The translations under genes were made by a program, and so were the position numbers. 44,244 bases of DNA from Betaproteobacteria bacterium (lineage in GTDB: Bacteria; Pseudomonadota; Gammaproteobacteria; Burkholderiales; SG8-41), in assembly GCA_016202565.1 (NCBI GenBank), contig JACQOK010000349.1:1-44244 (forward strand), given 5' to 3'. This document shows, one piece after another, positions 10,363-39,244 of this stretch (within the stretch, counting starts at the first letter, position 1; every line of letters starts with the position of its first letter). The notes under the pieces are model-generated. The model did no database searches and was not told where the DNA came from. It worked only from the letters and a program-made list of their open reading frames with translations.

Positions 10363-10616
10363 TCGGCTTCCTGCCCGTTGGCATGAGCATTATCGTGCCT
10401 TCGCCGGCGTTGCGCGGCTTGCGCCATCATCGATCAAGCCGGTTGACGGCCGTAGGGCCCGCTGCGCGCAGGGGATAGTCCGCTCGGATCAGCACAGGGA
10501 AGGGGTTGCCGAAACCGAAGCTTCATTCACGCAAGCCCTGAACTGCCGTGCGGCTTACCTGTCCGCCGCGTGCCGAAGCGGGCGCGTCTCGCAGCGTGTG
10601 CCGGCGGCCTGTCGTC

Positions 10617-11112: not shown

Positions 11113-11165
11113 CGATCACGTCCTTGCACGGCACTCCGGAAAAGCGGGCGGCGCGGCTGGTCGGT

Positions 11166-12065: not shown

Positions 12066-12802
12066 GCGGTGAGCCGCTCCAATAACGGCTGGGGCAATAT
12101 GGGCCCCTCCAGGTCCGTCTCCCAGCCATACGCGACCCCGGCCACGCCTTGGAAGACGCCCGGCGCAGGTAGATCGGCCGCGGGCGAAGTGCTGACAACG
12201 TGCAGCTTGTGCTTCGGCACGCTCGAATAGGTGCTCGCATCGAGCGAACGGAATCCCTCCACCATGGATGCGGAGAGCCAGTAGCCGCCGTACTCGTGCA
12301 TCGCCTCGCGGCGCTCGCGGTGACTCAAGTACCGATTCCGCTCGAATATGGACGCCTGAACGCGTTTCAGCACGCGCAGGTACTCCGCTCCGTCCGGAAC
12401 CGGATCCCACAGGACCAACCGCTGGACGTCGTCGCGAGCGCCCGCGTACTTGCAGACAAGCAGGGCACCGGCCCGCACTCCGAGCAGCTGCACGCTGGTG
12501 CATCCGGAGAGCTCCCGGCCTTCCTGAACCGCGAGTGCGATGTCCTCCAGCCAGTCGGAGATCCCAACCTCGGCGAGCTCGCCGAACGAGTCTCCGGTGC
12601 CGCGATAATCGAAGCGGAGGACGTGCTGGCCTTTCCCGGAGAGGACAATGGCGAGTTCTCTCAGCACAAGATGCGTGCGCATATATTCCGAGCACAGCGG
12701 CGGGCAGATTATCGTGAGCAGCCTGCCGCTCCCTGCAGCCGGCGGGTGGTACGTCGCGAAGCGCTGTGCGCTGCCCGCTCCGAAGAAGAAGGCTTCGATC
12801 AT
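12047..12802 (-). CDS. Alpha/beta-fold protein, 'hydrolase 2' type, with Arg in place of the nucleophile; translationally coupled to the NRPS
   Basis: Track ORF 12047..13234 is trimmed to ATG 12802 (MIEAFFFGAG...). ATGA overlaps the NRPS stop (12799-12802). Motifs are VLRFDYRGTGDS, LLGVRAGALL and LVLWDPVPDGAEYL. At 251 aa it has the same length and motif order as the product of 40065..40820. Confidence 0.8.
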   Translation of the reverse strand: MIEAFFFGAGSAQRFATYHPPAAGSGRLLTIICPPLCSEYMRTHLVLRELAIVLSGKGQHVLRFDYRGTGDSFGELAEVGISDWLEDIALAVQEGRELSGCTSVQLLGVRAGALLVCKYAGARDDVQRLVLWDPVPDGAEYLRVLKRVQASIFERNRYLSHRERREAMHEYGGYWLSASMVEGFRSLDASTYSSVPKHKLHVVSTSPAADLPAPGVFQGVAGVAYGWETDLEGPILPQPLLERLTACLTLS

Positions 12803-15800: not shown

Positions 15801-16047
15801 CGCTGCGCTCCAGCGCCGGCACGTCGAGCGGGCCCCGCAGCCGGTATCCGTTCGGCAGGTTGTACGCGGGATTGCCCGGCGTCATTTGGTCGATCACCCA
15901 GATCTGCCGCTGGGAAAACGACAGGGGAACGGCGTCGTGATTCGGGCGCTTGGGTATCGCGCAGTCGTTCACTCGCTTGCGGGTGGCCGCCCCCAACCGC
16001 TGCTGCAGCAGCGCTCTTTTCTCAGGGGAAAGGTCTGACATGCTCAT
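12799..16047 (-). CDS. NRPS module C-A-T (A-domain code Gly-like); no TE, R or terminal C domain
   Basis: The C domain has SFSQRQIW and HHIVADGLS (HHxxxDG). The A domain has LSYAAL, YVIYTSGSTGRPKGV, FDIAVLE, NLYGPTETTV, GELYIGGDGVALGY, YRTGDRA and PNGKIDR. The T domain has FFEMGGYSLL. The 10-residue code read by eye is DILQLGLVWK. Confidence 0.95.
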   Translation of the reverse strand: MSMSDLSPEKRALLQQRLGAATRKRVNDCAIPKRPNHDAVPLSFSQRQIWVIDQMTPGNPAYNLPNGYRLRGPLDVPALERSVNEIIKRHEGLRTTFVVRDGEPVQRIHPDLEIRVKVTPLDHLRGEERENKLQALASEESLRSFDLSRLPLIRVSVFRLGAVEHVLILNFHHIVADGLSFGVFMRELDAFYRAYTGGADARPLELAVQYADFAVWQRQRMAGEAACADQIEFWQRQLAGTLPVLELPGDRPRPALQSFNGSNVFFGIPAPVAEDLKTLGAREGCTVFMTLLAAFQVLLQRYSGADDIVIGTPVAARTQGELDPLIGNFLNMAALRCDLSGDPAFIELLRRTRDTTLNAFSNSGVSFEALAKHLKLERDPSRNPVFQVILQVLAGSAPKIGDLQVSSFHFDLKFAQFDLGLHLYEEDQGYVGRFEYCTDLFEARTVERLSSNFQQLLRVFARNPWQKISELPLLSVVERSLVLDEWNQTGADYPAGALVHELFEAQVKRAPSRTALTVGAAALSYAALGARAARVSRLLRARGIGRGQRVGLCVERGADMVAAMLGILKAGAAYVPLDPSFPTERLRFMAEDAGLALLVSTTALSGTLDMPGERQLLLDAAAAAIDSAAVIPLPGDAPAARPEDPAYVIYTSGSTGRPKGVVVPHRAVVNFLTSMAREPGLTENDVLVAVTTLSFDIAVLELLLPVTLGATVVIAAPDEATDGRALSALLDQHRATVMQATPVTWRMLVETGWTGRVPFKALVGGEALPKDLADQLIARGVELWNLYGPTETTVWSTCARITDPSGGITIGRPIANTSVRILDARKNLSPIGVPGELYIGGDGVALGYWNRPELTAERFIPDPFSTAPGATLYRTGDRARWCNDGTLEHLGRLDDQVKVRGFRIELGEIETVLAGHPDVHQAAVHLWTVKPNDMRIVACCVPARGGVLPAIGLRKHLRARLPEYMIPQYFLAVDEFPLTPNGKIDRRRLPTPVVTESRVGQHDAPADPVEAAIAEIWTKLIQPARPIVRSDKFFEMGGYSLLGLRALRLIEEKLGKRLEFVVLFQETLADIAARCRSGEPAP

Positions 16048-16082
16048 GAAGAAAAGGCGATTCTCGGCGGGGGGCGGGGCCG

Positions 16083-19000
16083 TTACTCTTGAGAAACGAG
16101 CCGTTGCGCCTGGTCATCGGTCATGCTTTCGATTTCCGCGAGGATTCTTGCCTGGATGACCGACGCCAGTTGCGCGATCGTGGGCGCCTCGAAGAACTCC
16201 CTGAGGCTGAACCTGATTTCATACAACGCTCTCACCTTCGACACGATCTGCATGGCCAGCAGCGAGTGCCCACCGAGCCGGGAAAACTGCTCGTGAACGC
16301 CGATCTGCTCGAGGCCCAAGACGATTCTCCAGATCTCCGCTACCGCTGCCTCGACTTCGTTGGTGGGGGCATCCGCCCCCTCCTGCACGGTGCCGCGGCG
16401 AGCGGGCATCGCGCGGCCCGTCCGCGCCAGCGACAGATACCGGTCGGGATCGACCGGCGCCCGGGATCGCGCCAGCACCTCCTGAAGATCCTCCGGACTG
16501 ACCAGGACCTGCTGCAGATCGGAGTTCAGTGCCCGTGCGAACGCCTCCACGCCGTCCCGGGTGGCGATCGCCTTGTCGAGGGCGGCCTTCTTCCAGCCCT
16601 CCAGCCCGGGCGCCGTTTCCAGCTCCGCCAGCTGTCCGATCTCCTTCCAGCCGGGCCAGTTGATGGTCAGCGTGTGAAACCTGTTCCGCGCATTGGCGGC
16701 ATAGGTGCAGGCATCGAGGAAGCAGTTGGCGGCGCTGTAGTCGCAGTGCGCGTACGGAGTATCGATTGCCGTCATCGACGAGAACAGAACCAGGAAATCC
16801 AGCGGCACGTCCTCGAGCAGGTCGAGCAGGATCATCGTGCCGTCGACCTTCGGGGCGAGCACGCTATCCGCAGTGGCCCTGGTCTTGCTCTGGATCAACT
16901 CCGCTTTGACGATGCCGGCGGCGTGGATGATGCCGTTGATCGCCCCGTAGCGCTCCAGTGCGTTCTCGAGAACGCTCTGCATCTGTGCCCGGTTGGAGAC
17001 CTCGGCCACCTGCACCTCGACTTGCCCTCCGGAGGCCTCGATTTCCATCAGCGCGTCGATCGTCCTCAGCACGGACTGCGGAGCCTCGCGCGTCAGCGAC
17101 AACTGCTTCCACACCGATTTATCGGGGAACGCCGACTTCTTGGTGAGAACGATCCGGGGCTGGCAGGTCTGCGCCAGATATTTCGAGATCGACAACCCGA
17201 TCCCTCCGGTACCCCCGGTAATGACGTAGACCCCGTTGCGTCTCAAACGACCGAGGCCGGACGGGTGCTCCGACGCCTCCGACGAGAGGGCCTTCGGCAG
17301 GGCGACGCGTTCGAAGTCCCGCCGCCAGCGATAGCGCCCGCGGTAGGCGACCACCTCGCCGCGGCACGGGTCGGCGAACTCGGAAACGATCCTGGCGATC
17401 ACTTCGCCGGGCAAGCTGTCGATGGGCTGTTCATCGGGCAGATCGATGTTGAAGCACTTGACGTTGGGGAACTCCTTGGGGATGACTCCGCAGGGTCCGA
17501 GCACCGTTGCCATTTCAGGAGCGAGGCGTTCTTCGCCGGTGACTTCATGCACCCGGTTGGAAATAATGCCGATGCTGACTGGAACGGAAACGTTCAGCTC
17601 ACCGAGTGCCTGCGCGATGTGCAGGAGGCTGTAGAAGCCGAATTCCTGGCGGGCCGCGCAGGAGTAATCGGCGTGCTCCCGGTCATCGCGGATGAGGCTC
17701 CCCAGATGGATGATGTTGATGGCCTTTGGCGCGGCGCCCACCGCGAGCACCTCGAACAGCTTCAGGTAGTTGTCGATGCCCGCCGGATTCAGCTCGAACG
17801 AACCATCCCCGCACTGCGCGAAGCGGTCTCCAAACCGGACGAAAGCAGCCGCGAGTCGAAGGCCGTCAAGGTGCGCTTTGACCTGACCCCCTCCGCCGTA
17901 ACGGTCGGCAAAAATCAGCCAGAAGGCGTCATCCCGGGGGCGGCGCGGTGCGCCGAAAGGCGGCTCGCGCTTCCATGCCGGAACATAGAACCACTCGTCG
18001 AAGCCCCGCATCCCCGATGTCTGGTCGTGCTCTTGCCTCTCGTCTGCCCCGGGGGGCGTGGTCTCCATCCAGTGGGTCTGTCTCGCGAAAGGATAGGTCG
18101 GCAACGGCACTCTGCGGCGGCGCCCGCCGGACGGAGCATTGTCCCAGTGGATTCCGACGCCCGCGAGCCACAGCCTGCCGATGGCGTGCCACAGGAACTC
18201 GACATCGGACTGGTTCTCGTAGTCGTGCCTGATCGAGGATACCGCCAGCGGATCGCCGCCATTGCACCGGTCGGGATGCTGCATGGCGAGTACCGCCAGC
18301 GTCCGGCCCGGCCCCGCTTCCAGGAGAATGGGATTCGTGAAGCGCCAGAGCTCGTGCAGAGCGTCGCTGAACCGGGCCGTCCGCGTGGCGTGCAGGGCCC
18401 AGTAAGCGGGATCGGCGGCTTCGCTTCGCGTAATCCAGGTGCCGGTGACGTTGGAGATGTACGGAATGGCAGGCGCGTTGAGGCGGACCTTGCCCACCTC
18501 CTTTTCGAACGGCTCCACGATCGGATCGAGCATGCGCGAGTGAAAGGCGTGAGCGTTCTGAACGTGCCGGCAGAGGATGCTCTTCGCATTCAGCGTCTTC
18601 TCGAAATCGGCTACGGCGGCGGCCGGTCCGGCCACCACGCACAGGCTCGGGCCGTTGATCAGGGAGATGGACAGATCCCCGGGCAGCAGCGGAAGCAACT
18701 CGGCTTCCGGCAACGTGACGGCGAGCATGGCTCCCTGGGGCAGTGCGTTGACCAGCCGTGCCCGCGTTGCGACGAGCCGCAACGCATCCTCCAGCGATAG
18801 AACGCCGGCCACGCACGCCGCCACGTACTCGCCCATGCTGTGACCGACGATGGCATCAGGGGTGATGCCGAGCGATTGCCAGAGACGCGCCATGGCATAC
18901 TCGACCGTGAATAGCGCCGGCTGGGCTACGAGCGTCCGATTCAGGTTCGCGGCCTCCCGGCCCTCCGGTGCATCGGCGCCCCGCCCGAGCATTTTTTTCA

Positions 19001-20771
19001 GGTCAATGCCCTGGCTCTTGCGATCCTTCTTCCAACTCCCGTCGGCGGGATAGATGACGTTCCGGATGTCGATCCCGAGGTGCGGCTCGAGAATGTCGGA
19101 GCAGCGATCGACCTCCTGTCTGAATACGTGCCACGTCTCGTAGAGATCGCAGGCCATGCCCACGTAGTGATCGCCGATGCCGGGCAACAGCAGGATTACG
19201 GGGCGCCGCGATTCGTCCGCCCGGCCGGTAAGGACCCGTTTCGAGCGTGCGTCGCCGAGGGCGGTGATGGCGTCCTTCCTGTCCTCACAGAGGAGATACC
19301 GCCGGTGTGAGAACGCCTTGCGCCCGGTCTGCAGGGTGTAGGCGATGTCACCCATGTTCACGGCATCGTTCCGGTCAAGGAACTCGCGCAAGTTGTGCGT
19401 GGCCTCGTCCAAGGCTCGTTCAGTCTTCGCCGAAAGAACCAGCAAGTGTGGCGAGCGGGCTGCGGCCGATGCCGCCGCCTGCGGCGGCGCCTCCTCGAGG
19501 ACTATGTGCGCGTTGGTCCCGCCCATGCCGGTGGACATCACGCCCGCTCGCCTGGGACCGTCGCCCACCCATTCCCGCAACCGCGCGTTGACATAGAACG
19601 GGGTGGCCGGAAAGTCGATTTCGGGATTGGCTTCGCTGAAATGGAGATTGGCCGGAAGGGTTCGGTGCTCGAGGGCGAGAACGGTCTTGATCATGCCGGC
19701 GATCGCGGCTGCGGCGTCGAGGTGGCCGATATTGGTCTTCACCGAACCAATGGCGCAGTAGCTGCAACGCTGCGTGAATGTGCGAAACGCCTTGGTCAAG
19801 GCCCTGACCTCGATCGGATCCCCGACGGGGGTTCCCGAACCGTGCGCTTCTACGTAGGTGATGCTGTCAGCTTCGACCCCGGCATTGGCCAGCGCCTCCA
19901 CGACAGCGTCGGCCTGGCTCGCGACGCTCGGCGCGGTGTAACCGGCTTTTTCGGAACCGTCGTTGTTGACGGCCGAGCCCTTGATCACGGCATGTATGGT
20001 GTCGCCGTCGGAGAGCGCGTCCGCGAGCCGCTTGAGCACAACGATGCCGCCGCCGCTGCCGAAAACGGTGCCGTTCGCCCGGGCGTCGAAAGCCCGGACG
20101 TGCCCGTCCGGAGAGACCACCCCGCCGCCGTCGTAGAAGTACCCGGCGCGGTGCGGAACGCGCACCGATACCGCCCCGGCGAGCGCCATATCGGACTCCC
20201 CGCTCAACAGGCTCTGGCGGGCCAGGTGGACCGCGACCAGGGAGGTCGAGCACGCGGTCTGAATCGTGATGCTGGGCCCCCTGAGATTGAACTTGTAGGA
20301 GATCCGGGTGCTCAGAAAATCCTTGTCGTTTCCGATGAGCGTGGGGATGTAATCCTCGGCGAGCCGGCTTACCAGCCCGACGTTCATGAAATAGGTGTTG
20401 AGAGCCGCTCCGGTAAAGACCCCAATGCGCCCCTGATAGCGCTCCGGGTCGCAGCCCGCATGTTCGAGCGCTTCATGGGCCAGCTCCAGCAGGATGCGGT
20501 GCTGCGGATCCATGGTCCTCGCCTCCATCGGCGAGTAGCCGAAAAACGCTGCATCGAACTGACCCGGCTCCTCCAGGACCGGCGCCACCTTCACGTAAGC
20601 CGGGTTGGAAAGCCAGACCGCGGGCACGCCGGATGCCACGAGCTCCTGGTCCGAGAACCTCGTGATCGACTCGACGCCTGCTGCGAGGTTGTGCCAGAAC
20701 TCGTCGAGGTTGCGCGCCCCCGGAAACCGGCCGGACATGCCAACGATCGCGATGTCGAACTCGTTGTCCAT
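16083..20771 (-). CDS. Type I PKS module KS-AT-KR-carrier
   Basis: Track ORF is trimmed to ATG 20771 (MDNEFDIAIVGMSGRFPGA), 8 nt after the upstream stop. KS motifs are TACSTS, EAHGSGT and NIGH (about 20762-19488). AT motifs are GHSMGE and HAFH, malonyl-type (about 19199-18282). KR motifs are VITGGTGGIG and YSAAN (about 17234-16647). The carrier has LGGHSL (about 16364-16137). No DH or ER motifs were seen. Confidence 0.95.
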   Translation of the reverse strand: MDNEFDIAIVGMSGRFPGARNLDEFWHNLAAGVESITRFSDQELVASGVPAVWLSNPAYVKVAPVLEEPGQFDAAFFGYSPMEARTMDPQHRILLELAHEALEHAGCDPERYQGRIGVFTGAALNTYFMNVGLVSRLAEDYIPTLIGNDKDFLSTRISYKFNLRGPSITIQTACSTSLVAVHLARQSLLSGESDMALAGAVSVRVPHRAGYFYDGGGVVSPDGHVRAFDARANGTVFGSGGGIVVLKRLADALSDGDTIHAVIKGSAVNNDGSEKAGYTAPSVASQADAVVEALANAGVEADSITYVEAHGSGTPVGDPIEVRALTKAFRTFTQRCSYCAIGSVKTNIGHLDAAAAIAGMIKTVLALEHRTLPANLHFSEANPEIDFPATPFYVNARLREWVGDGPRRAGVMSTGMGGTNAHIVLEEAPPQAAASAAARSPHLLVLSAKTERALDEATHNLREFLDRNDAVNMGDIAYTLQTGRKAFSHRRYLLCEDRKDAITALGDARSKRVLTGRADESRRPVILLLPGIGDHYVGMACDLYETWHVFRQEVDRCSDILEPHLGIDIRNVIYPADGSWKKDRKSQGIDLKKMLGRGADAPEGREAANLNRTLVAQPALFTVEYAMARLWQSLGITPDAIVGHSMGEYVAACVAGVLSLEDALRLVATRARLVNALPQGAMLAVTLPEAELLPLLPGDLSISLINGPSLCVVAGPAAAVADFEKTLNAKSILCRHVQNAHAFHSRMLDPIVEPFEKEVGKVRLNAPAIPYISNVTGTWITRSEAADPAYWALHATRTARFSDALHELWRFTNPILLEAGPGRTLAVLAMQHPDRCNGGDPLAVSSIRHDYENQSDVEFLWHAIGRLWLAGVGIHWDNAPSGGRRRRVPLPTYPFARQTHWMETTPPGADERQEHDQTSGMRGFDEWFYVPAWKREPPFGAPRRPRDDAFWLIFADRYGGGGQVKAHLDGLRLAAAFVRFGDRFAQCGDGSFELNPAGIDNYLKLFEVLAVGAAPKAINIIHLGSLIRDDREHADYSCAARQEFGFYSLLHIAQALGELNVSVPVSIGIISNRVHEVTGEERLAPEMATVLGPCGVIPKEFPNVKCFNIDLPDEQPIDSLPGEVIARIVSEFADPCRGEVVAYRGRYRWRRDFERVALPKALSSEASEHPSGLGRLRRNGVYVITGGTGGIGLSISKYLAQTCQPRIVLTKKSAFPDKSVWKQLSLTREAPQSVLRTIDALMEIEASGGQVEVQVAEVSNRAQMQSVLENALERYGAINGIIHAAGIVKAELIQSKTRATADSVLAPKVDGTMILLDLLEDVPLDFLVLFSSMTAIDTPYAHCDYSAANCFLDACTYAANARNRFHTLTINWPGWKEIGQLAELETAPGLEGWKKAALDKAIATRDGVEAFARALNSDLQQVLVSPEDLQEVLARSRAPVDPDRYLSLARTGRAMPARRGTVQEGADAPTNEVEAAVAEIWRIVLGLEQIGVHEQFSRLGGHSLLAMQIVSKVRALYEIRFSLREFFEAPTIAQLASVIQARILAEIESMTDDQAQRLVSQE

Positions 20772-20779: not shown

Positions 20780-22408
20780 CTAACGACTCGCCTCGATGAC
20801 CGGTTCGGGCAATGCCTTGCGATCGGCTTTCCCGCTCGGCGTCAGCGGGATTTCCCCGATTCTTTCGAAGCGGTTGGGGATCATGTAGTCGGGAAGGCGC
20901 CTTCGCAGGCAGCGCTTCAGATCCTCGATGTCCAAGTCCGGTTTGCACACCAGGTAGGCGATGATGAGGATGACGCTCTCCGAGTATTTCCTGACCATCG
21001 CCACGCAGTCGACGATGCCGGCGTGTTCCCGGATCGTGTTCTCGATCTCGCCCAGCTCGATCCGCAATCCGCGGATCTTGACCTGATGATCCTGGCGGCC
21101 CAGGTACTCGATGTTCCCGTCGGGCAGCCAGCGGGCGACGTCTCCCGTTCGATAGATTCTTTCGCCGGGGTTGACGGGATTGTCGGTGAACTTCTCGGCC
21201 GTCAGCGCCGGGTTGTTGAGATAGCCCCTGGCGAGGCCGACTCCGGCAATGCACAGCTCTCCGGTCTCGCCGATGCCGACCTGCCGGCCGTCCTTGATGA
21301 CGTAGAGCCGGATGTTCTGGATGGGGCGCCCGATCGGAATGCTCTCGAAATCATTGTGCGCCGGGCAGTCGAAATGGGTGACGTCGACGGTCGCCTCGGT
21401 GGGGCCGTAGAGGTTGATCAGGCGGGTCCCGGTCCGGCTGCGCAGGATGGCGTTGAACTTCTTCACGTGGCTCGGCATCAGCGTTTCGCCGCTGGCGAAT
21501 ACCTGCCGGACCGAAGCGAGCTTCTCCGGCGCCTCGCCGCGCTTGGCCTCCAGATACTCCAGGAAGACGTTGAGCATCGAAGGAACGAAGTGCATGACGG
21601 TGGTGCGATGTCTCCTGATGGTCTCGACGATGGCCGGGGGATTTCTTTCCCCGCCCGGCATCAGGAAGCAGAGCCTGGCGCCCTGCAGAGCCCACCAGAA
21701 GAGTTCCCACACCGAAACGTCGAAATAGTAGGGCGTCTTCTGCAGGATGATGTCGTTTTCATCGATGGGGTACGCCTGCTGCATCCAGTGCAGGCGGTTG
21801 ACCACGGCGCGGTGCTCGATCATCACGCCCTTCGGTTTGCCGGTCGACCCGGACGTGTAGATCACGTACGCCAGGTCGTCCGGCTTGTTCAGAATGGCGG
21901 GGTTCGCCGCCGGGCCACGGTAGATGTCCGGATCGTCGAGATCGATGGCGAGCCCTGCAAACGCATAGCGCCCGGCGGTCGCGCCGTGGACCAGCAGCAT
22001 CCTGACTCCCCCGTCCTTCAGCATGTAGTCGATGCGCTCCGGCGGATGGTCGGGCGGCACCGGGAGATAGGCGCCTCCCGCCTTCACGATGCCCAGAACG
22101 CCGATGATCATGGCGAAGGACCGCTCGACCATCAGTGCAACGACCTCGCCCGGCCCGACACCTTTCGCCCTCAGCAGATGCGCCAGCTGATTGGCCTTTT
22201 CGTTCAACTGCGCGTAAGTGAGCGACGTCACCCCGAACACTTTGTCGTGGTCGCAGAGAACCGCCGTCTGAGACGCGTGCGTAGCGACCTGCGCCTCGAT
22301 CAATTCCTGCAGCGTGACGTTATCCGGGAACGCGGCCTCGGTTCGGTTGAACCCGGCGATCCGCGCGAGATCGCTTTCATTCGCGACCGGTGTGGCGTGG
22401 GTATCCAT
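20780..22408 (-). CDS. Stand-alone adenylation enzyme with no carrier domain (code Ser-like)
   Basis: Track ORF 20780..23281 is trimmed to ATG 22408 (MDTHATPVANESDL...), 14 nt after the acyl-CoA DH stop. Motifs are LTYAQLNEKAN, YVIYTSGSTGKPKGV, FDVSVWE, NLYGPTEATVDV, GELCIAGVGLARGY, YRTGDVA and PSGKADR. The code read by eye is DVWHFSLVDK. The protein ends 15 aa after the A10 Lys. Confidence 0.9.
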   Translation of the reverse strand: MDTHATPVANESDLARIAGFNRTEAAFPDNVTLQELIEAQVATHASQTAVLCDHDKVFGVTSLTYAQLNEKANQLAHLLRAKGVGPGEVVALMVERSFAMIIGVLGIVKAGGAYLPVPPDHPPERIDYMLKDGGVRMLLVHGATAGRYAFAGLAIDLDDPDIYRGPAANPAILNKPDDLAYVIYTSGSTGKPKGVMIEHRAVVNRLHWMQQAYPIDENDIILQKTPYYFDVSVWELFWWALQGARLCFLMPGGERNPPAIVETIRRHRTTVMHFVPSMLNVFLEYLEAKRGEAPEKLASVRQVFASGETLMPSHVKKFNAILRSRTGTRLINLYGPTEATVDVTHFDCPAHNDFESIPIGRPIQNIRLYVIKDGRQVGIGETGELCIAGVGLARGYLNNPALTAEKFTDNPVNPGERIYRTGDVARWLPDGNIEYLGRQDHQVKIRGLRIELGEIENTIREHAGIVDCVAMVRKYSESVILIIAYLVCKPDLDIEDLKRCLRRRLPDYMIPNRFERIGEIPLTPSGKADRKALPEPVIEASR

Positions 22409-22422
22409 GGGGTCGGTGTCGG

Positions 22423-23577
22423 TTACTTTCCGGGCCCGCCGGCTCGAGCGACGAACATCTTCCCCAGAATGTCCTCGTGGACCTGGGTCGTGCCCTCGAT
22501 GATCTCCATGATCTTGGCGTCCCGGTAATAGCGGGAAACCGGGGAGGAGCCGTGACAGCCTGCGGCACCTCTGATCTGAACGGCATCGGAGGCCGCCCGC
22601 ACGGCGGCTTTTGACGTGAAGTACTTGGCCGTCAAGGTCCTTTCGAACGCTTCGGGGAGGTGATCGTCCTCGGCGCGGCAGGCGTTGTGGCACAAGAGAC
22701 TTCCCGCTTCCAGGTCGGTACCCATCCTGGCGATCAACGATCGGATCATGCCGAGGTCGCCCACGGTGCCGCCGCCGATCCTCCGCGCGGCCGCGTAGGC
22801 GATGCTTTCTTCGAAGCACCCGCGCAGGAGTCCCAATGCAGACCAGGCGGTGCTGATCCGCCCATACTGCAGGCCCACGGGAGCGACGTGCGACAAGGCA
22901 AAGCCCGGCTTGCCGATGAGGTTCTCCGACGGAACTTCCACATCCTCGAAGTGCAACTGGGCCAGACCGGCCGCGCGGAACCCCATCAGGTCGCAGATGG
23001 GCTCGACGCCAAGACCGGGAGCGTTCCGGGGCACCAGGCAGGCCGCCGGACGCCGCTCGAGCCTGCCAAACACGAGAAACAGGTCCGCGAACTGGGCGCA
23101 GCTGATCCACTTCTTGTGACCGTTGAGAAGAAGGCTTTCGCCGCCGGAAGTCCGGGTGAATTCCGTGGTCAGAGACTGCAGGTCGCTCCCTGCTCCCGGC
23201 TCCGTCAGCCCGAACGCCCCGATCATCTTTCCGGTGGCGAGCGGAGGCAGCCAGCTGCGCTTCTGCTCGGCCGTGCCCCACTTGAGCAGGGCCATGGAAA
23301 CCATGGACTGGACCGTAAGCACGCCGGTCAGTGCCGAAGATCCTCTCCCGAGGGCTTCATTCAGCAGACCGAACGTGACGGCGTCGGATCCCTGGCCGCC
23401 ATAATCCGCCGGCAGGCTGCAGCCGAGGTAACCGCGCTGCGCCAGGCTGGAGATCACGGACCGGGGAATTTCCTGCTCGCGATCCCACTGCTCCGCAAAG
23501 GGCTCGACGTTGAGCTTCACGAAGGACTTGAATTCCTCGTGCCTGCTCGCTTGCGAGTCGGTCAGCAGCCGCCGCAT
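22423..23577 (-). CDS. Acyl-CoA/acyl-ACP dehydrogenase family flavoprotein (FkbI/ZmaI-like context)
   Basis: Motifs are FGLTEPGAGSDL, the ACAD middle and C-terminal pattern, YRDAKIMEIIEGTTQV (catalytic Glu region) and a C-terminal 4-helix region. Confidence 0.9.
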   Translation of the reverse strand: MRRLLTDSQASRHEEFKSFVKLNVEPFAEQWDREQEIPRSVISSLAQRGYLGCSLPADYGGQGSDAVTFGLLNEALGRGSSALTGVLTVQSMVSMALLKWGTAEQKRSWLPPLATGKMIGAFGLTEPGAGSDLQSLTTEFTRTSGGESLLLNGHKKWISCAQFADLFLVFGRLERRPAACLVPRNAPGLGVEPICDLMGFRAAGLAQLHFEDVEVPSENLIGKPGFALSHVAPVGLQYGRISTAWSALGLLRGCFEESIAYAAARRIGGGTVGDLGMIRSLIARMGTDLEAGSLLCHNACRAEDDHLPEAFERTLTAKYFTSKAAVRAASDAVQIRGAAGCHGSSPVSRYYRDAKIMEIIEGTTQVHEDILGKMFVARAGGPGK

Positions 23578-23598
23578 GAGAGCCGTCCGATCCTCGAC

Positions 23599-23862
23599 TC
23601 AAGCGGCCGAGTGGCCGTTTTTTCTCAGGACGAAGGCCGCCGTCGCGTTGAGCGACTTGAAATTCTCCATGTCGAGGTCGTCCATTCCCACTTCGATGCC
23701 GAAAGCTTTCTCGATGAACGTCATCAACTGGACGGCGAACAGGGAATTGACGATGCCCGATCCGAAGAGATCGTCGTCGTCATCCAGCTTCGCGATGGCG
23801 ATCGAGCCCAGTATGAAAGCCCTGACCGTATCCTTGATACCGCTTGCCTGTTCGGGACTCAT
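23599..23862 (-). CDS. Free-standing acyl carrier protein (87 aa)
   Basis: This is the C-terminal 87 codons of track ORF 23599..24888, starting MSPEQASGIKDTV. The candidate Ppant serine lies in LFGSGIVNSLFAVQLMTFIEK. Its ATG (23862-23860) overlaps the TGA of the upstream dehydrogenase (ATGA). Confidence 0.8.
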   Translation of the reverse strand: MSPEQASGIKDTVRAFILGSIAIAKLDDDDDLFGSGIVNSLFAVQLMTFIEKAFGIEVGMDDLDMENFKSLNATAAFVLRKNGHSAA

Positions 23863-24800
23863 GCGCTTCTCCGCTTCGTTGCATCGGCCCGCGCCGCTTC
23901 GGGCGCGGGATTTATCGCCCTTGCCGCAGCCTCCCCGCCTCTTTCCTCGGGATACACATGGAATCCTCTTCCGGTTTTCCGTCCCAGATGGCCGGCATGC
24001 ACGAACTTTCTCAACAGGGGACAGCAGCGGTACTTCGGGTCGTGGAAGCTCTCGTAGAGAACGTCGAGAGAGCGCATCACCGTGTCGAGCCCGATCAGGT
24101 CCGCCGTCTCCAGCGGCCCCATCTTGTGCCCGAAGCATTTCTTGAAGATGAGGTCGATCTTCTCCGCCGTCGCCACGCCGTCCTGCAGGGCGAACGCGGC
24201 CTCGTTCATGAACAGGTGCGAGATCCGGTTCGATACGAAGCCCGGCAGGTCCTCGACGATGATGGCCTCCTTGTTGAGGCGAGAAAGCAGCTGCAGCAAG
24301 CTGTCGACAGCGCGGTCCGAGGTATGGAATCCGCGGATCACTTCGACCGTCGGCTTCAAATGGACCGGGTTCATGAAGTGCACTCCGACCACGTTGGCCG
24401 CGCGCTTGGTGGCGCTCGCTATCTGCGTGATGGAAATACACGAGGTATTGGCGCCGAAACAGACTTCGGGAGGCACAGCTTTCTCCAGCTTCTGGTAGAC
24501 GCCCTTCTTGATGTCCCAATCCTCGGTTACGTTCTCGATGATCAAATCGCAGGAGGAAACGTCCTTCAGTTCCGTCGTCAAAACCAGGCGCCTCGCGGCA
24601 TCTTCCCTGGTCACAGCAGGCAGGGTTTTCGAGAGCAAGGGACCAAAGCGGACGTTCTTCAGAACCTCCTCTTCCGCCTTTCTCAATATTTCCTCCGACA
24701 GGTCGACCACCACCGCGTCGATCCCATGCAGAACCAGATCCGTGATCACCCCGGTCCCGATGTTGCCCGCTCCCACGACCCCGACGCGCGCTGGTCTCAT
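23859..24800 (-). CDS. 3-hydroxyacyl-CoA dehydrogenase family protein (FkbK/ZmaG-like context)
   Basis: The Rossmann motif is VGVVGAGNIGTG. Other motifs are HFMNPVHLKPTVEVIRG and GFVSNR, with a C-terminal helical domain. The preferred start is ATG 24800 (MRPARVGVVGAG), preceded by GAAGGAAGGGAG. The track start at 24836 is the alternative. Confidence 0.9.
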   Translation of the reverse strand: MRPARVGVVGAGNIGTGVITDLVLHGIDAVVVDLSEEILRKAEEEVLKNVRFGPLLSKTLPAVTREDAARRLVLTTELKDVSSCDLIIENVTEDWDIKKGVYQKLEKAVPPEVCFGANTSCISITQIASATKRAANVVGVHFMNPVHLKPTVEVIRGFHTSDRAVDSLLQLLSRLNKEAIIVEDLPGFVSNRISHLFMNEAAFALQDGVATAEKIDLIFKKCFGHKMGPLETADLIGLDTVMRSLDVLYESFHDPKYRCCPLLRKFVHAGHLGRKTGRGFHVYPEERGGEAAARAINPAPEAARADATKRRSA

Positions 24801-24817: not shown

Positions 24818-25678
24818 TCAACCTCTTCTGAACCACAACATGCCCATCTTCGCGGTCTCCGCGACCTGCTTCTCCAGCCTGAATCCATGCCGCCGCAAGT
24901 CTTCCTCTATTTCCCGTTCCTTGCCGTCATGGTATTCGATGATGATCCGGCCTATTATCGAGAAGGTGGGCGCGCTGATGCCCGCCAGGATGTCGTACTC
25001 CGATCCCTCGCAGTCCATTTTCAGCAGATCGATACGAGAGATGCTTTCCCTGCTGACAATATCGTTCAAAGAGATGGTAACTACCGATTCACGCTCGTCG
25101 TTGTCCGCATTTCCGTAGGCGATGCGATTCTGTGGACTGGCGGCTTTCGGGATCGTGACGACTTCGTTCGATCTGGAGGTGACGGCGTGGTGGTAGGGAA
25201 CGATTGTGTCCTGAAGATTGTTCCTTCTTATGTTTTCCAGGATGCAGCCACAGGCTTCGCGGTTCGGTTCGAACGCATACACTTTTTTCGCGCCGCTGAA
25301 GGCCGCATAGAGCGAAAACAGTCCGATATTCGCTCCGATGTCGACCACCACCGTATCGGGGTCTACCGGGTAGACCCTGTCGCAAAACACCTGGAACAAA
25401 ACGACCAGGTCGAGCTGATGGCCGGAAAGAATCAATTCCCCGCCTTTCTTGAGACGAATGCGTTTCTCCGGCGGCGACGTGTGATTCAAATAGTGGCGTA
25501 TGAGCGGACCCGGCCTTTTGAATACGGGCCATGCTCTAGCGACAAGCGGCGCATTTCTGAGGACTTTTGGCAGAAGCGCCCGCGCTCTGGCAGGCAACAA
25601 TGCCTTGGCGATCCTGCGAGCAAACTCGATTGCATCGAAGTTTCCTGCGCTGACGCCGATTTTGCTGGGGGTTTCCAT
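24818..25678 (-). CDS. FkbM-family methyltransferase
   Basis: Motifs are VVDIGANIGLFSLYAA, VYAFEP and IDLLKMDCEGSEYDIL. The start is taken as METPSK (25678), 1 nt after the loader stop. ATG 25690 is an alternative. Confidence 0.85.
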   Translation of the reverse strand: METPSKIGVSAGNFDAIEFARRIAKALLPARARALLPKVLRNAPLVARAWPVFKRPGPLIRHYLNHTSPPEKRIRLKKGGELILSGHQLDLVVLFQVFCDRVYPVDPDTVVVDIGANIGLFSLYAAFSGAKKVYAFEPNREACGCILENIRRNNLQDTIVPYHHAVTSRSNEVVTIPKAASPQNRIAYGNADNDERESVVTISLNDIVSRESISRIDLLKMDCEGSEYDILAGISAPTFSIIGRIIIEYHDGKEREIEEDLRRHGFRLEKQVAETAKMGMLWFRRG

Positions 25679-25679: not shown

Positions 25680-28600
25680 TCACGAAGCATGCTGCCGCAT
25701 TGCGTTATTGCGTCTGCGCTGACCCCGCAGGGCGGCCACTGCGGTCTCGGTGCCGGCGTGGGCATCCGCGGAGGCCGCGCCGAGTTTCGCGGCGAGCAGC
25801 CTCACCGTCGGGCACTCGAACAGGCTGACGATGGAGAGGGTTTGCTTCAGCTCCTTCTTGATCGTGGCAATCAGCTGGACCGCACGGAGCGAGGTTCCGC
25901 CCGCTTCGAAGAAATTGTCGTTGAGCCCGATTCGCGGACGGCCCAGGATCGTTCTCCAGATGTTGAGCAGTGCGGTTTCCAACGCGGTGCCCGACACCAC
26001 GTCCTGCCCCGCGCCGGGAAGTTCCTTTTCGAGCCGCCATTCCTCGATGGCTCGCGTAAGCCCCTCGATGGTGCACAGACGTTCCGCGAGCGTCTGCAGA
26101 CGCTCGGATAGAGCGGCGGCCCCGAAGCGCGACACGTGCGGCCGGGTGTCCGGCTCGGCGGCGGCAGGAGCCTCGCCGCCGCCGCCCCGCGCGGCCTCGT
26201 CGGGGGCGTATTCGACACCCGCCGCGCGTTCCGCCGCAACGATCCACGATCCGGCCGTTTCGTCCAGATCCTGCTCGCCGATGCTCTTGATGAATTCCCT
26301 GACCGGCGCGTTCTTCTCCGTGCGCCGATAGGCGAGCTCCACGTAACGCTTGTTTTCCCTGAGCGCACGCTGGCCAAGCTGGGACAGGATCGCGTGTTCC
26401 ACGCCTTTACCCAGCACCCGGCAGCTCAGTAGAAAGGTGTCCACCCGGTAGCGGTCGGCCCGGGTCTCGTAGAGCACGACGCCGACCAGCCCATAGTCGC
26501 CGAACCGGTCGGCCACGCAAACCGCCAGACCGGTCGTGTGTTCGCGCTTCAGGAAGTCTCCGATCTCCTTCTCCGAGCGCCGGACCGTCGTGAAGTTGAA
26601 TTGATTCGTCCTGAACGTCAGCTGCGAGACACGACCGAGCTGGTCCTCCGCCGCCTCCGCAATGTCGATGCGAAGCTCGAGTTCTTCGATGAACGCCTTC
26701 AAGGAACAGTTCTTCTCGCGGAACCGCTGCCGCTGCGCGTTCTCCTGATACATCCGGGTGCGCTTGCGATCTTCTTCGGTCGCATCCGAGTGGTCGAACG
26801 CCCACACGTGGTCCAGAAACGCCGGGAACGACTCGCTGTCACGCGGCAATTGCAGCGCCAGAACGCCCGGGCAGTTGATCCTGACATCCGCGCAATCGAC
26901 CGGGTTGTCGTCGATGAAGATGAAGCTGTCCAACCCGAGACCAAGCTCCGCCGCCAGCGATTTGACGTTGTCCGACTTGCTGTTCCAGTTGATGCGCCAC
27001 GAAACCAGGTGCTCGCGCTTCAGCACCATGTCGGACCGCTGGTCGAAGACTTCCAGCACATCGTCTTCGTTATTCTTGCTGCACAGGCACAGGAGCATGC
27101 CGGCGTTCATTTGCCCGATCATGAACTCCTGCAGCTTGCGATACGCCGCGCTGACTTCGACCCCGAGCGCACCGTCCTCCCCGCATACGCCCTTCCACAG
27201 CGTGTTGTCGCAGTCGAGCACGATCACCTTGAACGGTTTTCTCCTCAGGCTGAAGAGGGTCCGGAACAGCGCCGTCCCGATCGCGGCATAACACTCCGTG
27301 CTGTAGGGAATACGGCCCAGGCGATGACTATGCGGATCGTAGTAGTCCCTGACCGGATAGCGCTGCAGCGGCAAGGCCGAACCGATGGCGCGGACATTCG
27401 GCAGGGCGCCCGCCTCCGCCAGCAAGATCCGCTCGGCGTCGCTCAGCGCCGCCTTCAGATCGGCGTCGGCATCCACAGACGGAGTCGTCGGACAGACGCA
27501 CAGGATGAGCGGCGCGGTGGCCTGCTTCATGAACGCCGCGAGTGCGGTGCAGAAGTCCCGGACGTTTCGCTGCAGTCCGCCGGCGGCGCGGCGAGCTTGA
27601 CCCAGTCCGGCATGACCCAGTCCGGTATCGACGGCCGCCCCGTTCCGGGTTGCATACAGGTTGAACAATCCTGAATGCTCGAGCAATCGCTCGCGCTCGA
27701 CGGCGCAGCGGTAGCCCTTCGCCGCGAGCAGGCCTTCGATCCGCTTGACTGCCTCCCCGGCAGGATCGTGAATTTCCATTGCGATCTGGGCGATTTTCGG
27801 CCAGTCGCGCTCATCGATCCCGTTGATGATATCCAGCTCGCTCTTTTCCGCATCGATCTTGAGGAGATCGATCCTGTCGATCCGGTTCTCGCGGATGATC
27901 TCCGACACGGACGTCATGCGGCACTCGTGGGTGGTGCGGCGGAGCCGGTCGGCGGTCAACTCGGCAACATATTGCTCCACCGATTCCCCGTCAACCGATG
28001 TCTCGCTGTTCAGAGTGTTCCGCACGACCGCCTGAATGGCTTCGCGGTCCCTGGTTTCATCCGCGTAGAACCCCGAGAACACCGAAGACTTCTCATAGAA
28101 GGTCAAGGTCGCCGATTTGGACCGGTCCGACACGCCGACGTTTGCGGCCCGGACATTTGCTCCGTAGGCCTCGCAGTTGACCCTCAAGAGATCGTAAGCG
28201 GCCGGCGCGGGCTCGAAGGCGTAGATTTTCGGGTCCTTGCAGCGGCTCGTCACAAACAGGGAAAAAAGCCCGATGTTCGCCCCGATGTCCAGCACGGTGG
28301 CGCCGTCGTGCAGGCGGATGCCGTGCCTCAGGTAGCACTGATCCTCAAAGATTTCCCGGTAGAGATAGTCCGTTTCGTAGTGGTTCAAATGGGCGATTTC
28401 GAGTCCGTTGGGCAGAACATGTCTCGACCGGCCGCCGAAACATTGGTCCGCCCTTTCCCGGGTGAGCGTCATGCCCGCGTGCCGATCCGCCGCGGCCCAC
28501 TCCTCCAGGGCGAGCAGAATGACGTTGACTCCGTCGCGATTCCTGCGCAACGCGCTTTCGCCATCCAGCAGCTGCTGGAAGATCTGGTCGAAGGGGGCGA

Positions 28601-29618
28601 ATTCGAGGTGGAGCGGAGCGCTGAAATGCGCGCCCCAGAAGTTCAAGGCGTCCTCGATCGGCTCAACGGTGAAGTTCGAGGCGATGACGAGCCTTGTCGC
28701 CGCCGTCTTTCCGGCAGTGTCGGGGCGGTCGAGACAGGTGAATGCGACCCCCGCCAGTTCCAGATACCGCCTGCCCGAGTCGTCGAAGGCCCGAACGCTG
28801 CCGACAAAATTCTTTCGATCACCGTCGCCGTCCTGAACCAGGGTAGCGTGCGCCCACAGCGTATCAGGCAAATTGCCATCCGACAGCTCGGCTTTCTCGA
28901 TCGACTGCAGCACGAAGGTCCTGCCGTCCTCGATGAAGAAGGACCCGAGGAGTTGCGTCACGGAATCGAGCACGGTCGGATGCAAGCCAGCGGGTTCGGT
29001 TTCCCCGTGCTGCCGCGCCCCGGAAAGCAGCCCCAGGGATTGGCCGCCCATCCTCCAGACCGAGGAAATCCTTTGAAAGGCCGGCCCGTAGTGATTGCCG
29101 TTTTCGCGCAGCATCCGGTAGAAGCGCTCCGCGTCGATCGCGGCATGCGACTGCGCCCGGAAGGCCTCGATGGAAAACGCATCGGTGCCTGCCGCTGCGG
29201 CGAACGACGGGGGCTTGCGCTCGATCTCGAGCCGCGCGGCATACTGCCGCTCGGGTATCCCGGTGCTCCCTCGATCGACTTCCGCTTCATAGAACGTGTA
29301 TTCCACGCGTCCGCCGTCGTGATCCCTCGCCTCGACCCTCATGTCGATGTCTTCTGCCCCAAGAATGATGGGCCGGCGAAAGATCACGTTCCGCACCACG
29401 CCCGGAACGCGCCGAGCGAGCCTGTGATCCACGCGCCGCGCCATTTCGATGTAGAACGAACCGGGCAGAACGACCATGTCCTGAAAACCATGATCCGCCA
29501 GATAGGGCAACGAATGCAGGCCGACCCTGAATTCCGCGCAGGTCGCTCCCGGCCGATCCGTGGAGTGCATCACCGGCCCGATCATGATGGAGGGAGTTTC
29601 AGGCGTCGTCGTGCTCAT
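25680..29618 (-). CDS. Multidomain loading protein: PKS-type DH, FkbH N-lobe interrupted by an FkbM-type methyltransferase, HAD (FkbH) core, GNAT-like domain, carrier domain
   Basis: DH (about 29546-28734) has LADHGFQDMVVLP and LDSVTQ. FkbH N-lobe part 1 (about 28697-28485) has VIASNFTVEP..QIFQQLLD. MT (about 28421-27645) has VLDIGANIGLFSLF, IYAFEP and IDLLKIDAEKSE. FkbH N-lobe part 2 lies at about 27572-27234. HAD (about 27233-26784) has VLDCDNTLW, CSKNN and FIDDNP. The GNAT-like end (about 26696-26289) has FRTNQFNFT. The T domain (about 26006-25779) has FFEAGGTSL. Confidence 0.9.
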   Translation of the reverse strand: MSTTTPETPSIMIGPVMHSTDRPGATCAEFRVGLHSLPYLADHGFQDMVVLPGSFYIEMARRVDHRLARRVPGVVRNVIFRRPIILGAEDIDMRVEARDHDGGRVEYTFYEAEVDRGSTGIPERQYAARLEIERKPPSFAAAAGTDAFSIEAFRAQSHAAIDAERFYRMLRENGNHYGPAFQRISSVWRMGGQSLGLLSGARQHGETEPAGLHPTVLDSVTQLLGSFFIEDGRTFVLQSIEKAELSDGNLPDTLWAHATLVQDGDGDRKNFVGSVRAFDDSGRRYLELAGVAFTCLDRPDTAGKTAATRLVIASNFTVEPIEDALNFWGAHFSAPLHLEFAPFDQIFQQLLDGESALRRNRDGVNVILLALEEWAAADRHAGMTLTRERADQCFGGRSRHVLPNGLEIAHLNHYETDYLYREIFEDQCYLRHGIRLHDGATVLDIGANIGLFSLFVTSRCKDPKIYAFEPAPAAYDLLRVNCEAYGANVRAANVGVSDRSKSATLTFYEKSSVFSGFYADETRDREAIQAVVRNTLNSETSVDGESVEQYVAELTADRLRRTTHECRMTSVSEIIRENRIDRIDLLKIDAEKSELDIINGIDERDWPKIAQIAMEIHDPAGEAVKRIEGLLAAKGYRCAVERERLLEHSGLFNLYATRNGAAVDTGLGHAGLGQARRAAGGLQRNVRDFCTALAAFMKQATAPLILCVCPTTPSVDADADLKAALSDAERILLAEAGALPNVRAIGSALPLQRYPVRDYYDPHSHRLGRIPYSTECYAAIGTALFRTLFSLRRKPFKVIVLDCDNTLWKGVCGEDGALGVEVSAAYRKLQEFMIGQMNAGMLLCLCSKNNEDDVLEVFDQRSDMVLKREHLVSWRINWNSKSDNVKSLAAELGLGLDSFIFIDDNPVDCADVRINCPGVLALQLPRDSESFPAFLDHVWAFDHSDATEEDRKRTRMYQENAQRQRFREKNCSLKAFIEELELRIDIAEAAEDQLGRVSQLTFRTNQFNFTTVRRSEKEIGDFLKREHTTGLAVCVADRFGDYGLVGVVLYETRADRYRVDTFLLSCRVLGKGVEHAILSQLGQRALRENKRYVELAYRRTEKNAPVREFIKSIGEQDLDETAGSWIVAAERAAGVEYAPDEAARGGGGEAPAAAEPDTRPHVSRFGAAALSERLQTLAERLCTIEGLTRAIEEWRLEKELPGAGQDVVSGTALETALLNIWRTILGRPRIGLNDNFFEAGGTSLRAVQLIATIKKELKQTLSIVSLFECPTVRLLAAKLGAASADAHAGTETAVAALRGQRRRNNAMRQHAS

Positions 29619-30360
29619 TCATCGCGTCCGTCAGACGACGGCAGGGCAGCGAGCGCACGGTAATTCGCTCGGGGTCAGCCATTGGGCCGTGAACACGCTG
29701 TACGACGAGGGCGCCGGTCAGGCCAGGGCCGGGCACGAAGCCATGAAGCGCCCAGCCGCACCGGTCTCCCGGCGTGCTGTCAACGCGCAGGATGCAGGCG
29801 GGCATACCCGGAGCAAGGGAAACGTCGAAGCGACCAAGCCCATGGCTCAGGCCAGCGCCGAGCGCCTTGACGAAGGCCTCCTTGCGCGTCCAGCAGTTGA
29901 AGAACCCGAGCGGCCTGTCGCGCGGAGCGAGCGCGAGATACGCGGCGTTCTCCCGGGGGGAGAACGCGTGTGCTGCGATTTCGTCGGCGCCGGGGATCAC
30001 GCGCACAGCTTCGATGTCCACTCCGATCTCGCGTGCCGGCGAAAAGGCGTAAACGGCGACATCATCGCAGTGAGAGACGTTGAACTGCAGTCCGGAATGT
30101 GCCAAAGCTCCTCCGAGCGCAGGCTTGCCGCGCCGTCCGTACGTCAGCTCCACCGAGCCCGGCCGAACTCCCAGCCGCATCCCGAGCAACTGGCGCAGTC
30201 GCGCGCGCGCGACAGTAAATCGGCAGCGATCGCGATCCAATGCAAAGCGCCTCGCGCGCTCTCGCTCTTCCGCCGAAAGCAGGGCGGCCGACGCGCCGAC
30301 GGTATCGGGGCCTACGTCGATTCGGGTCACCACGACCTCGATTGCGCTGTCATCCGCCAT
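29599..30360 (-). CDS. Sfp-type 4'-phosphopantetheinyl transferase
   Basis: Motifs are RGKPAL, FNVSHC, IGVDIE and WTRKEAFVKALG. Its 3' end overlaps the loader start by 20 nt. Confidence 0.9.
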   Translation of the reverse strand: MADDSAIEVVVTRIDVGPDTVGASAALLSAEERERARRFALDRDRCRFTVARARLRQLLGMRLGVRPGSVELTYGRRGKPALGGALAHSGLQFNVSHCDDVAVYAFSPAREIGVDIEAVRVIPGADEIAAHAFSPRENAAYLALAPRDRPLGFFNCWTRKEAFVKALGAGLSHGLGRFDVSLAPGMPACILRVDSTPGDRCGWALHGFVPGPGLTGALVVQRVHGPMADPERITVRSLPCRRLTDAMNEHDDA

Positions 30361-35737: not shown

Positions 35738-35740
35738 ACG

Positions 35741-37081: not shown

Positions 37082-37087
37082 ACTCGC

Positions 37088-39199: not shown

Positions 39200-39244
39200 A
39201 TGACGGCGTTCACCCGCAATGTCACGATCCGGGGAGATAACATC

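Follow-up and report, generated by a model that had tools for sequence, protein, structure and literature searches.

A putative aminomalonyl cassette and its closest relatives

The window analysed here is positions 1 to 44,244 of contig JACQOK010000349.1, which belongs to a metagenome-assembled genome (MAG) from a soil-type metagenome labelled Betaproteobacteria, and it carries four adjacent minus-strand genes that probably constitute a cassette for making aminomalonyl bound to an acyl carrier protein (ACP). In order of transcription, the genes code for a 313-residue homologue of 3-hydroxyacyl-CoA dehydrogenases (HADH; 23859..24800; Pfam 3HCDH_N, 1.2e-45, and 3HCDH, 2.9e-30), a discrete 87-residue ACP (23599..23862; PP-binding, 1.2e-07), a 384-residue homologue of acyl-CoA dehydrogenases with all three Acyl-CoA_dh domains (ACAD; 22423..23577), and a stand-alone adenylation (A) enzyme of 542 residues (20780..22408) that has AMP-binding and AMP-binding_C as its only Pfam domains. 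The HADH start codon is preceded by a GAAGGAAGGGAG ribosome-binding site, and the ATG of the ACP gene overlaps the HADH stop codon as ATGA. The cassette lies within a tightly packed and compact operon of about 19 kb with a single ketosynthase (KS), all of whose genes are on the minus strand as judged from the open reading frames, Pfam scans and third-position GC content (0.74–0.82 in the called frames, against a window GC content of 58–71%). An original prediction made from the DNA sequence had described these four genes at these positions, the ATGA coupling, the lack of a carrier domain in the A enzyme, and an FkbH domain upstream in the loading protein, and the open reading frames and domain searches agree with it throughout.

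We compared the cassette with two fetched reference clusters, those for zwittermicin on Bacillus thuringiensis plasmid pIS56-233 and for colibactin in Escherichia coli CFT073, with the roles of the Zma and Clb proteins taken from published work (PMC6395733, PMC4207774, PMC5923317). The order HADH-ACP-ACAD-A is that of zmaG-H-I-J, which is also followed by a protein containing a KS, an acyltransferase (AT), a ketoreductase (KR) and an ACP (zmaK), and it is that of clbD-E-F-(G)-H. Amino acid identities are highest with the zwittermicin proteins (55% for the HADH, 45% for the ACP, 48% for the ACAD, 53% for the A enzyme and 54% for the KS), and are 48, 37, 39 and 46% for the HADH, ACP, ACAD and serine A domain of colibactin. 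By sequence, the window thus has a serine-code A enzyme, a ZmaH/ClbE-type ACP, a ZmaG/ClbD-type HADH and a ZmaI/ClbF-type ACAD; what it lacks is a dedicated AT for transfer from ACP to chain, such as the discrete ZmaF or ClbG, the latter of which hands aminomalonyl to several colibactin modules (PMC5923317). There are further differences. Zwittermicin uses several polyketide synthase (PKS) modules and has a second ACAD/ACP pair for hydroxymalonyl, whereas the window has one module and no second pair; the window PKS is without the A domain and peptidyl carrier protein (A-PCP) of ZmaK, and an FkbH loader is present instead; and zwittermicin genes are found on Bacillus plasmids rather than in MAGs of Gram-negative soil bacteria. 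In colibactin the serine A domain is fused into the nonribosomal peptide synthetase (NRPS) ClbH, whereas in the window it is a separate protein.

Predicted substrate of the A enzyme and its carrier

The specificity code of the A enzyme, read at motif-mapped positions 230, 231, 234, 273, 304, 306, 333, 341, 342 and 527, is DVWHFSLVDK, as the original prediction had it. The same code is present in 48 of 54 stand-alone A domains that are at least 53% identical to that of the window; three of the remaining six read DVWHFSLIDK, two fetched reference enzymes among them, and the other three are cut short. Both ZmaJ and the first A domain of ClbH (ClbH-A1) have DVWHFSLIDK, which differs from the window code by one conservative I/V change, and identities are lower to the A domain of ZmaK (37%) and to the second A domain of ClbH (32%). 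ZmaJ loads L-serine on ZmaH (PMC6395733). The code is therefore that expected of a serine loader and not of an enzyme for a non-hydroxy amino acid, and the A enzyme is predicted to activate L-serine and to load it on the 87-residue ACP.

The ACP has 36% identity to ZmaD, below its match to ZmaH, and when plasmids were searched with it by tblastn the best match fell at the zmaH position in 52 Bacillus plasmids; RefSeq annotates ClbE as an aminomalonyl-acyl carrier protein. Among 1.84 billion representative proteins, nearly every homologue of the ACP is a stand-alone protein of 80–140 residues; a search of this set for informative fusions gave none, only free-standing ACPs, a few ACPs in tandem and one poly-ACP protein. 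We took this nearly invariable discreteness, which is that of extender carriers, as a point in favour of an aminomalonyl-ACP product.

The two dehydrogenases group with proteins that act on carrier-bound substrates

The original prediction would have been undermined had the two dehydrogenases clustered with ordinary enzymes of beta-oxidation, which they do not. The HADH matches the best solved generic enzyme, Hbd (4kug), with 41% identity and 218 bits, below its identities to ZmaG and ClbD. For the ACAD the scores are 379 bits with ZmaI, 267 bits with ZmaE (37% identity), 255 bits with ClbF and 203 bits with the generic ACAD 2dvl (39%), and the catalytic Glu361 is invariant. Generic ACADs and Hbd are the best matches among solved structures, with scores well below those to ZmaI and ZmaG. 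The NCBIfam names for both proteins are likewise generic (3-hydroxybutyryl-CoA dehydrogenase, acryloyl-CoA reductase, and a weak match to prolyl-PCP dehydrogenase), and all fall far below the curated cut-offs, with the HADH below the cut-off of every beta-oxidation family. In a neighbour-joining tree with 100 bootstraps, the ACADs of the window family join ZmaI, then the ACADs encoded beside serine-code A domains in Paraliomyxa, Streptomyces and Amycolatopsis, then ClbF, and after it ZmaE, with butyryl/short-chain and other acyl-CoA dehydrogenases outside and backbone supports of 76–100. A similar tree of the HADHs (200 bootstraps, with two outgroups only) groups the family with ZmaG and ClbD, outside 3-hydroxybutyryl-CoA dehydrogenase.

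In zwittermicin biosynthesis the aminomalonyl and hydroxymalonyl routes use orthogonal ACADs, ZmaI and ZmaE respectively, and have ZmaG in common (PMC6395733). Cassettes for hydroxymalonyl- or methoxymalonyl-ACP (ZmaN/D/E/G; FkbG-K) share with the window the two types of oxidoreductase and a discrete ACP that belongs to one family with theirs, as well as an FkbH domain and genes of the O-methyltransferase type, but the window ACAD and ACP are nearer to the aminomalonyl versions, and the FkbH is not a free enzyme beside the ACP as it is in the Fkb and Zma cassettes but is fused to its own carrier, a dehydratase (DH) and an FkbM-type methyltransferase. The source of the unit had been given as serine and/or glycerate. 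Since the ACAD, ACP and A enzyme are closest to the aminomalonyl-specific ZmaI, ZmaH and ZmaJ, the serine part of that proposal, leading to aminomalonyl, is favoured over hydroxymalonyl, and glycerate as the source is made less likely both by the distance from ZmaE and ZmaD and by the fusion of FkbH to a carrier of its own.

The gene string recurs in many soil bacteria

Relatives of the window ACAD are abundant in metagenomes, where they form at least 120 protein clusters (at 90% identity) that are 76–100% identical to it. A scan of one genome per species yielded 71 loci, and tblastn with the window proteins and domains located the string loader-HADH-ACP-ACAD-A-KS-AT-KR-ACP in about 60 of them, nearly all in MAGs. 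Because it recurs in about 60 independent genome loci, the string is not a chance arrangement. Six labels occur among the loci (Verrucomicrobia, Acidobacteria, Gemmatimonadetes, Betaproteobacteria, Ignavibacteria and Bacteroidetes), and several of the loci are carried by contigs of chromosome scale, among them OY970281.1, OZ245769.1 and some of 1.0–1.4 Mb. Cassette proteins are 55–82% identical across phyla, with the KS mostly at 62–88%, which points to horizontal spread, although the bin label that a MAG gives to a short contig may be mistaken. Chryseolinea lacunae, a Streptomyces, an Amycolatopsis and Paraliomyxa miuraensis have more distant cassettes, which share the gene order and the serine code but are without the FkbH loader.

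The PKS module, the loader and the end of the line

Directly after the A gene is a PKS module with the Pfam domains of KS-AT-KR-ACP (16083..20771), whose KS has an intact Cys/His/His triad; its AT and KR are 39% and 37% identical to those of ZmaK. Across family loci the KS shows 52–88% identity, with values below 62% only in L027 and L054, which are decayed or atypical. In most loci no other part of the cluster is as well conserved, the AT, KR and loader included. The PKS has no N-terminal docking region, with the KS motif starting at residue 5.

At the other end of the operon, the first gene codes for an Sfp-type phosphopantetheinyl transferase (PPTase; 29599..30360; ACPS and AASDHPPT_N), which is kept in first position in many family loci. 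It is followed by the loader, a 1312-residue protein (25680..29618) with a DH (PKS_DH_N/PS-DH), an FkbM-type methyltransferase (Methyltransf_21), an FkbH domain (TIGR01686, 5.9e-91) and a carrier (PP-binding), in which we recognise by eye HxxxDxxxxP and DxxxQ in the DH and DCDNT and SCRVLG in the FkbH domain. In most family loci the loader accompanies the cassette in the same synteny, and it may supply a starter that is derived from glycerate and is methylated, dehydrated or both. The bryostatin protein BryA contains an FkbH loading module. In the loading modules for glycerate-derived starters of the suomilide/dysinosin type, an FkbH-carrier fusion also stands at the start of the line and the glycerate is methylated, which provides a precedent for a methylating FkbH loader (PMC8609519); the window loader differs in that the methyltransferase is inserted within the FkbH region, a DH precedes it, and the loader is paired with an aminomalonyl cassette. 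An accessory FkbM-family methyltransferase gene (24818..25678; Methyltransf_21 and TIGR01444) lies between the loader and HADH genes and, among the fetched loci, is found only in the window's own contigs and in L005. In L004 (8935-9729), L006, L012, L024 and L052 there is instead a Methyltransf_24 gene between the HADH and ACP genes, and most members have no accessory methyltransferase.

Downstream of the PKS is an NRPS module with condensation (C), A and thiolation (T) domains (12799..16047; Condensation, AMP-binding and PP-binding). Its A-domain code, DILQLGLVWK, presumably denotes glycine, here and in many other loci, as judged from the glycine consensus code. Two alpha/beta hydrolase genes follow on the same strand (12802..12047 and 12065..11166), the first ATGA-coupled to the NRPS stop codon, and they are candidates for release enzymes. 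Both have weak matches below cut-off to exosortase-A-associated families (hydr2_PEP, 6.5e-31, for the first and hydr1_PEP, 1.7e-17, for the second), and the two genes, spanning 11166-12802, are paralogous. In L029, L058 and L061 a hydrolase homologue is encoded directly after the PKS, as if replacing a thioesterase (TE). The end of the line varies among the loci, being a TE with a docking domain, an alpha/beta hydrolase, or one NRPS module, with other A-domain codes elsewhere.

A proposed pathway

Orthology to ZmaJ/H/G/I and ClbH-A1/E/D/F supports the proposal that the four genes are a serine-dependent cassette for a malonyl-type unit, and we interpret them as an aminomalonyl-ACP cassette of the zwittermicin/colibactin type, with a probability of about 0.7. 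The A enzyme would activate L-serine and load it on the discrete 87-residue ACP, the HADH homologue would oxidise the side-chain hydroxyl of seryl-ACP to an aldehyde, and the ACAD homologue would oxidise the aldehyde of the resulting 2-amino-3-oxopropanoyl-ACP to a carboxylate, giving aminomalonyl-ACP. By orthology, we regard this loading and two-step oxidation as probable to much the same degree as the cassette assignment itself.

The PKS module is the likely consumer of the product. In the pathway that we favour, the loader would make glyceryl-ACP from a glycolytic intermediate, and its DH and methyltransferase would modify this, possibly to a 2-O-methylglyceryl or 2-methoxyacryloyl group. 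The KS-AT-KR-ACP module would then extend the glycerate-derived starter with the aminomalonyl unit, or perhaps with malonyl, and the KR would reduce the ketone to leave, in the first case, a short 2-amino-3-hydroxy acyl chain. In the window, the C-A-T module could join glycine to this chain and the coupled hydrolases could release it; in other members a TE would do so. We consider the odds to be about even that aminomalonyl serves as the extender, that a short amino-hydroxy chain results, and that glycine joining and release follow. With no dedicated trans-AT, either delivery would be through the cis-AT, in spite of its HAFH motif, or the KS would use the discrete ACP directly. Cassette and PKS always travel together, in about 60 loci with no other AT and no other acceptor nearby, and parsimony makes the cis-AT or the KS itself the most likely acceptor of aminomalonyl-ACP.

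Taken more broadly, this could be a widespread and horizontally shared pathway in which aminomalonyl-ACP enters without a dedicated acyltransferase, through a cis-AT of the HAFH/GHSxG type or directly at the KS, onto a glycerate-derived and possibly 2-methoxyacryloyl starter, with a small unknown amino-hydroxy acid or dipeptide of uncultured Acidobacteria, Verrucomicrobia, Gemmatimonadetes, Ignavibacteria and Betaproteobacteria as its product. We put this forward tentatively, and consider it less likely than not.

Observations that weigh against the proposal, and alternative explanations

Several observations weigh against the aminomalonyl-ACP interpretation or against use of the unit by the PKS module. 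The only AT in the window, that of the PKS (20771..16083), has the motifs GHSMGE and HAFH, which are kept in essentially all family members. The original prediction had already noted the malonyl-type HAFH and cautioned that the point of entry for the unit was unclear, and that caution stands and is sharpened by the comparisons. The two characterised ATs that depend on ACP-linked extenders have GYSxG together with GAAH or GPFH, whereas the malonyl-CoA-specific AT of ZmaK has GHSIG/HAFH (PMC4207774); by this criterion the window AT looks specific for malonyl-CoA. No homologue of ZmaF or ClbG was found by tblastn in the window or the family loci, other than a ZmaF-like gene in the atypical L056, which is without the family PKS; the cis-AT is 23–24% identical to ZmaF and ClbG. 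A tree of the family AT with ZmaA-AT, ZmaK-AT, ZmaF, ClbG, the ATs of ClbI and ClbB, CurL, SpnD and ATs adjacent to cassettes has backbone supports below 50. The outgroups in the dehydrogenase trees are few. Two loci of Opitutaceae, L038 and L039, retain HADH-ACP-ACAD with no stand-alone serine A gene within 10 kb. The structure of FkbI (1r2j), the ACAD homologue of a methoxymalonyl pathway, ranks below generic ACADs for the window ACAD, as it does for ZmaE; we dropped it as a marker, and the clade of ACADs acting on ACP-bound substrates is defined by the Zma and Clb proteins only.

Motifs proposed for ATs that use ACP-linked extenders are GYSxG in place of GHSxG, a lid other than HAFH or YASH, and hydrophobic residues in place of RxR (PMC4207774). 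The family AT has a hydrophobic residue (I, L, V or M) at the position of FabD R190, followed by x-R, but this motif begins with Ile in the cis-AT of ClbI too and so does not discriminate, and we set aside the change from RxR to hydrophobic as evidence of carrier recognition. ZmaA-AT, which is specific for hydroxymalonyl-ACP, is the closest solved AT; this too was set aside, as ZmaA has GYSFG/GAAH against GHSMG/HAFH in the window, and malonyl-type ATs score nearly as well. Taken with the poorly supported AT tree and the want of informative ACP fusions, these two features do weaken the motif criterion to some degree, as does a discrete AT on a plasmid of Streptomyces sp. NBC_00557 (L078), which combines GYSIGE of the ACP-dependent type with the 'malonyl' HAFH.

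Three other explanations of the locus were weighed. In one, seryl-ACP is the starter, with the A enzyme and ACP acting as a split version of the ZmaK A-PCP and the KS extending with malonyl-CoA, while the dehydrogenases act on glyceryl-ACP made by FkbH and give hydroxymalonyl- or methoxymalonyl-ACP. The window PKS does resemble ZmaK minus its A-PCP, the AT signature of ZmaK is shared, the cluster has an FkbH domain and methyltransferases like a methoxymalonyl cassette, the absence of an A gene from L038 and L039 would be readily accommodated, and ZmaG is described as serving both pathways (PMC6395733). However, the A enzyme is closest to ZmaJ and not to the A domain of ZmaK, and the ACAD and ACP resemble ZmaI and ZmaH distinctly more than they do ZmaE and ZmaD, with the ACAD grouping with ACADs encoded beside serine A domains. 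The fusion of FkbH to an NRPS-type carrier of its own and a DH is the layout of a loader; FkbH might also load the 87-residue ACP, with L038 and L039, which lack the A gene, as loci where this could apply. An ACP-linked unit made in this way would still need an AT, so that the AT problem remains, and we consider the explanation unlikely.

A related explanation, to which we give slightly less credence, is that one HADH/ACAD pair oxidises both seryl-ACP and loader-bound glyceryl-ACP, giving two C3-derived malonyl-type units. Zwittermicin biosynthesis does assign a single HADH, ZmaG, to both routes, but it needs two orthogonal ACADs (PMC6395733) where the window has one. Carriers for both substrates are present, as are extra methyltransferase genes inside the cassette in some members; most members, however, have a single KS module to consume extenders, and the DH of the loader would be left without a role. 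Finally, the dehydrogenases could be ordinary enzymes of acyl-thioester metabolism in a coincidental neighbourhood, as in beta-oxidation, in pyrrole formation by a prolyl-carrier dehydrogenase, or in a pair like DltA/DltC for D-alanine. Generic NCBIfam names and generic ACADs and Hbd as the top solved structures are what this would predict, but the names fall below their cut-offs, both dehydrogenases group with Zma and Clb proteins, a serine-code A domain and a discrete ACP stand in fixed synteny with them in about 60 loci, and the A-domain code is that of neither proline nor D-alanine. We rejected the pyrrole, D-alanyl carrier and beta-oxidation readings on these grounds, and the explanation as a whole is very improbable. 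The aminomalonyl-ACP cassette is the interpretation that we retain.

Relation to known pathways

A list from 2025 of pathways that use aminomalonyl-ACP as an extender contains zwittermicin, guadinomine and colibactin only (PMC12186529). We found no description in the literature of this family of clusters, nor of the pairing of an FkbH loader with an aminomalonyl cassette. The type of cassette is already known; what is new is this pairing, the absence of a dedicated AT, and the breadth of occurrence in uncultured soil bacteria. These findings suggest that aminomalonyl cassettes are far commoner in nature than the three listed products would imply. At about 19 kb and with one KS, the cluster is tractable for heterologous expression, which could reveal an abundant unknown soil metabolite. 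If an AT of the HAFH type does handle an ACP-linked amino extender, this would bear on the prediction of AT specificity from motifs in genome mining and on the engineering of amino groups into polyketides.

Variant loci and neighbouring genes

Some loci depart from the common arrangement. In L038 and L039 (Opitutales/Opitutaceae) the genes are rearranged with the PKS before the loader, and are followed by a convergent C-A-T-TE NRPS, an Ig-domain protein and a PPTase; the A-domain code of this NRPS is DLFNNALTYK, which would fit alanine. In L027 (Verrucomicrobia; 12861-16688) there is no FkbH loader, and a fused KS*-AT-ACP-TE is present whose KS carries two internal deletions and no longer has either catalytic histidine, yet the cassette is intact (about 66% identity). 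L027 and the two Opitutaceae loci alike caution against over-reading; L027 adjoins an exosortase EpsH gene and glycosyltransferases. L056 (about 5800-12800) has a discrete ZmaF-like AT (41% identity) directly before HADH-ACP-ACAD-A, the only such AT in a fetched locus outside Bacillus, and lacks the family loader as well as the PKS. The Streptomyces plasmid locus L078 (7787-15957) comprises an AT-less KS-ACP, a hydrolase, HADH-ACP-ACAD, a 397-residue protein with no Pfam match, and the discrete AT. In L062 and L064 (Streptomyces and Amycolatopsis), the cis-AT of the KS-AT module beside the distant cassette has GHSQGE, FASH and a W-A-W stretch, the last at the place of the hydrophobic motif that the ZmaA-AT paper associates with ACP-linked extenders.

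A divergent plus-strand operon (30840-40820) adjoins the PKS operon in the window. It contains genes for a second small ACP, an NAD-synthase-family protein (NF002048, above cut-off), an asparagine synthase (TIGR01536, above cut-off) that also resembles the XrtA/PEP-CTERM amidotransferase below cut-off, an acyl-CoA ligase like the exosortase-A-associated one (469 bits, with a cut-off of 592), a PGA_cap protein, ComA (phosphosulfolactate synthase), an ATP-grasp protein, ComB (2-phosphosulfolactate phosphatase) and a hydrolase. It is unusual to find sulfolactate genes next to a set with an ACP and a ligase. Homologues of this operon among the fetched loci are confined to the window's own contig (L002), except that the asparagine synthase is also present in L032.

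The flanks of the window (138-8130 and 42338-43573) contain genes for a MASE1/PAS histidine kinase, a hybrid kinase, a LuxR-type response regulator, a starch-synthase-like GT5, a nucleotidyl transferase, a heparinase II/III-like fragment and a GT4, and look like a polysaccharide locus. In L003, a Glycos_transf_4 gene is located just upstream of the PPTase gene.

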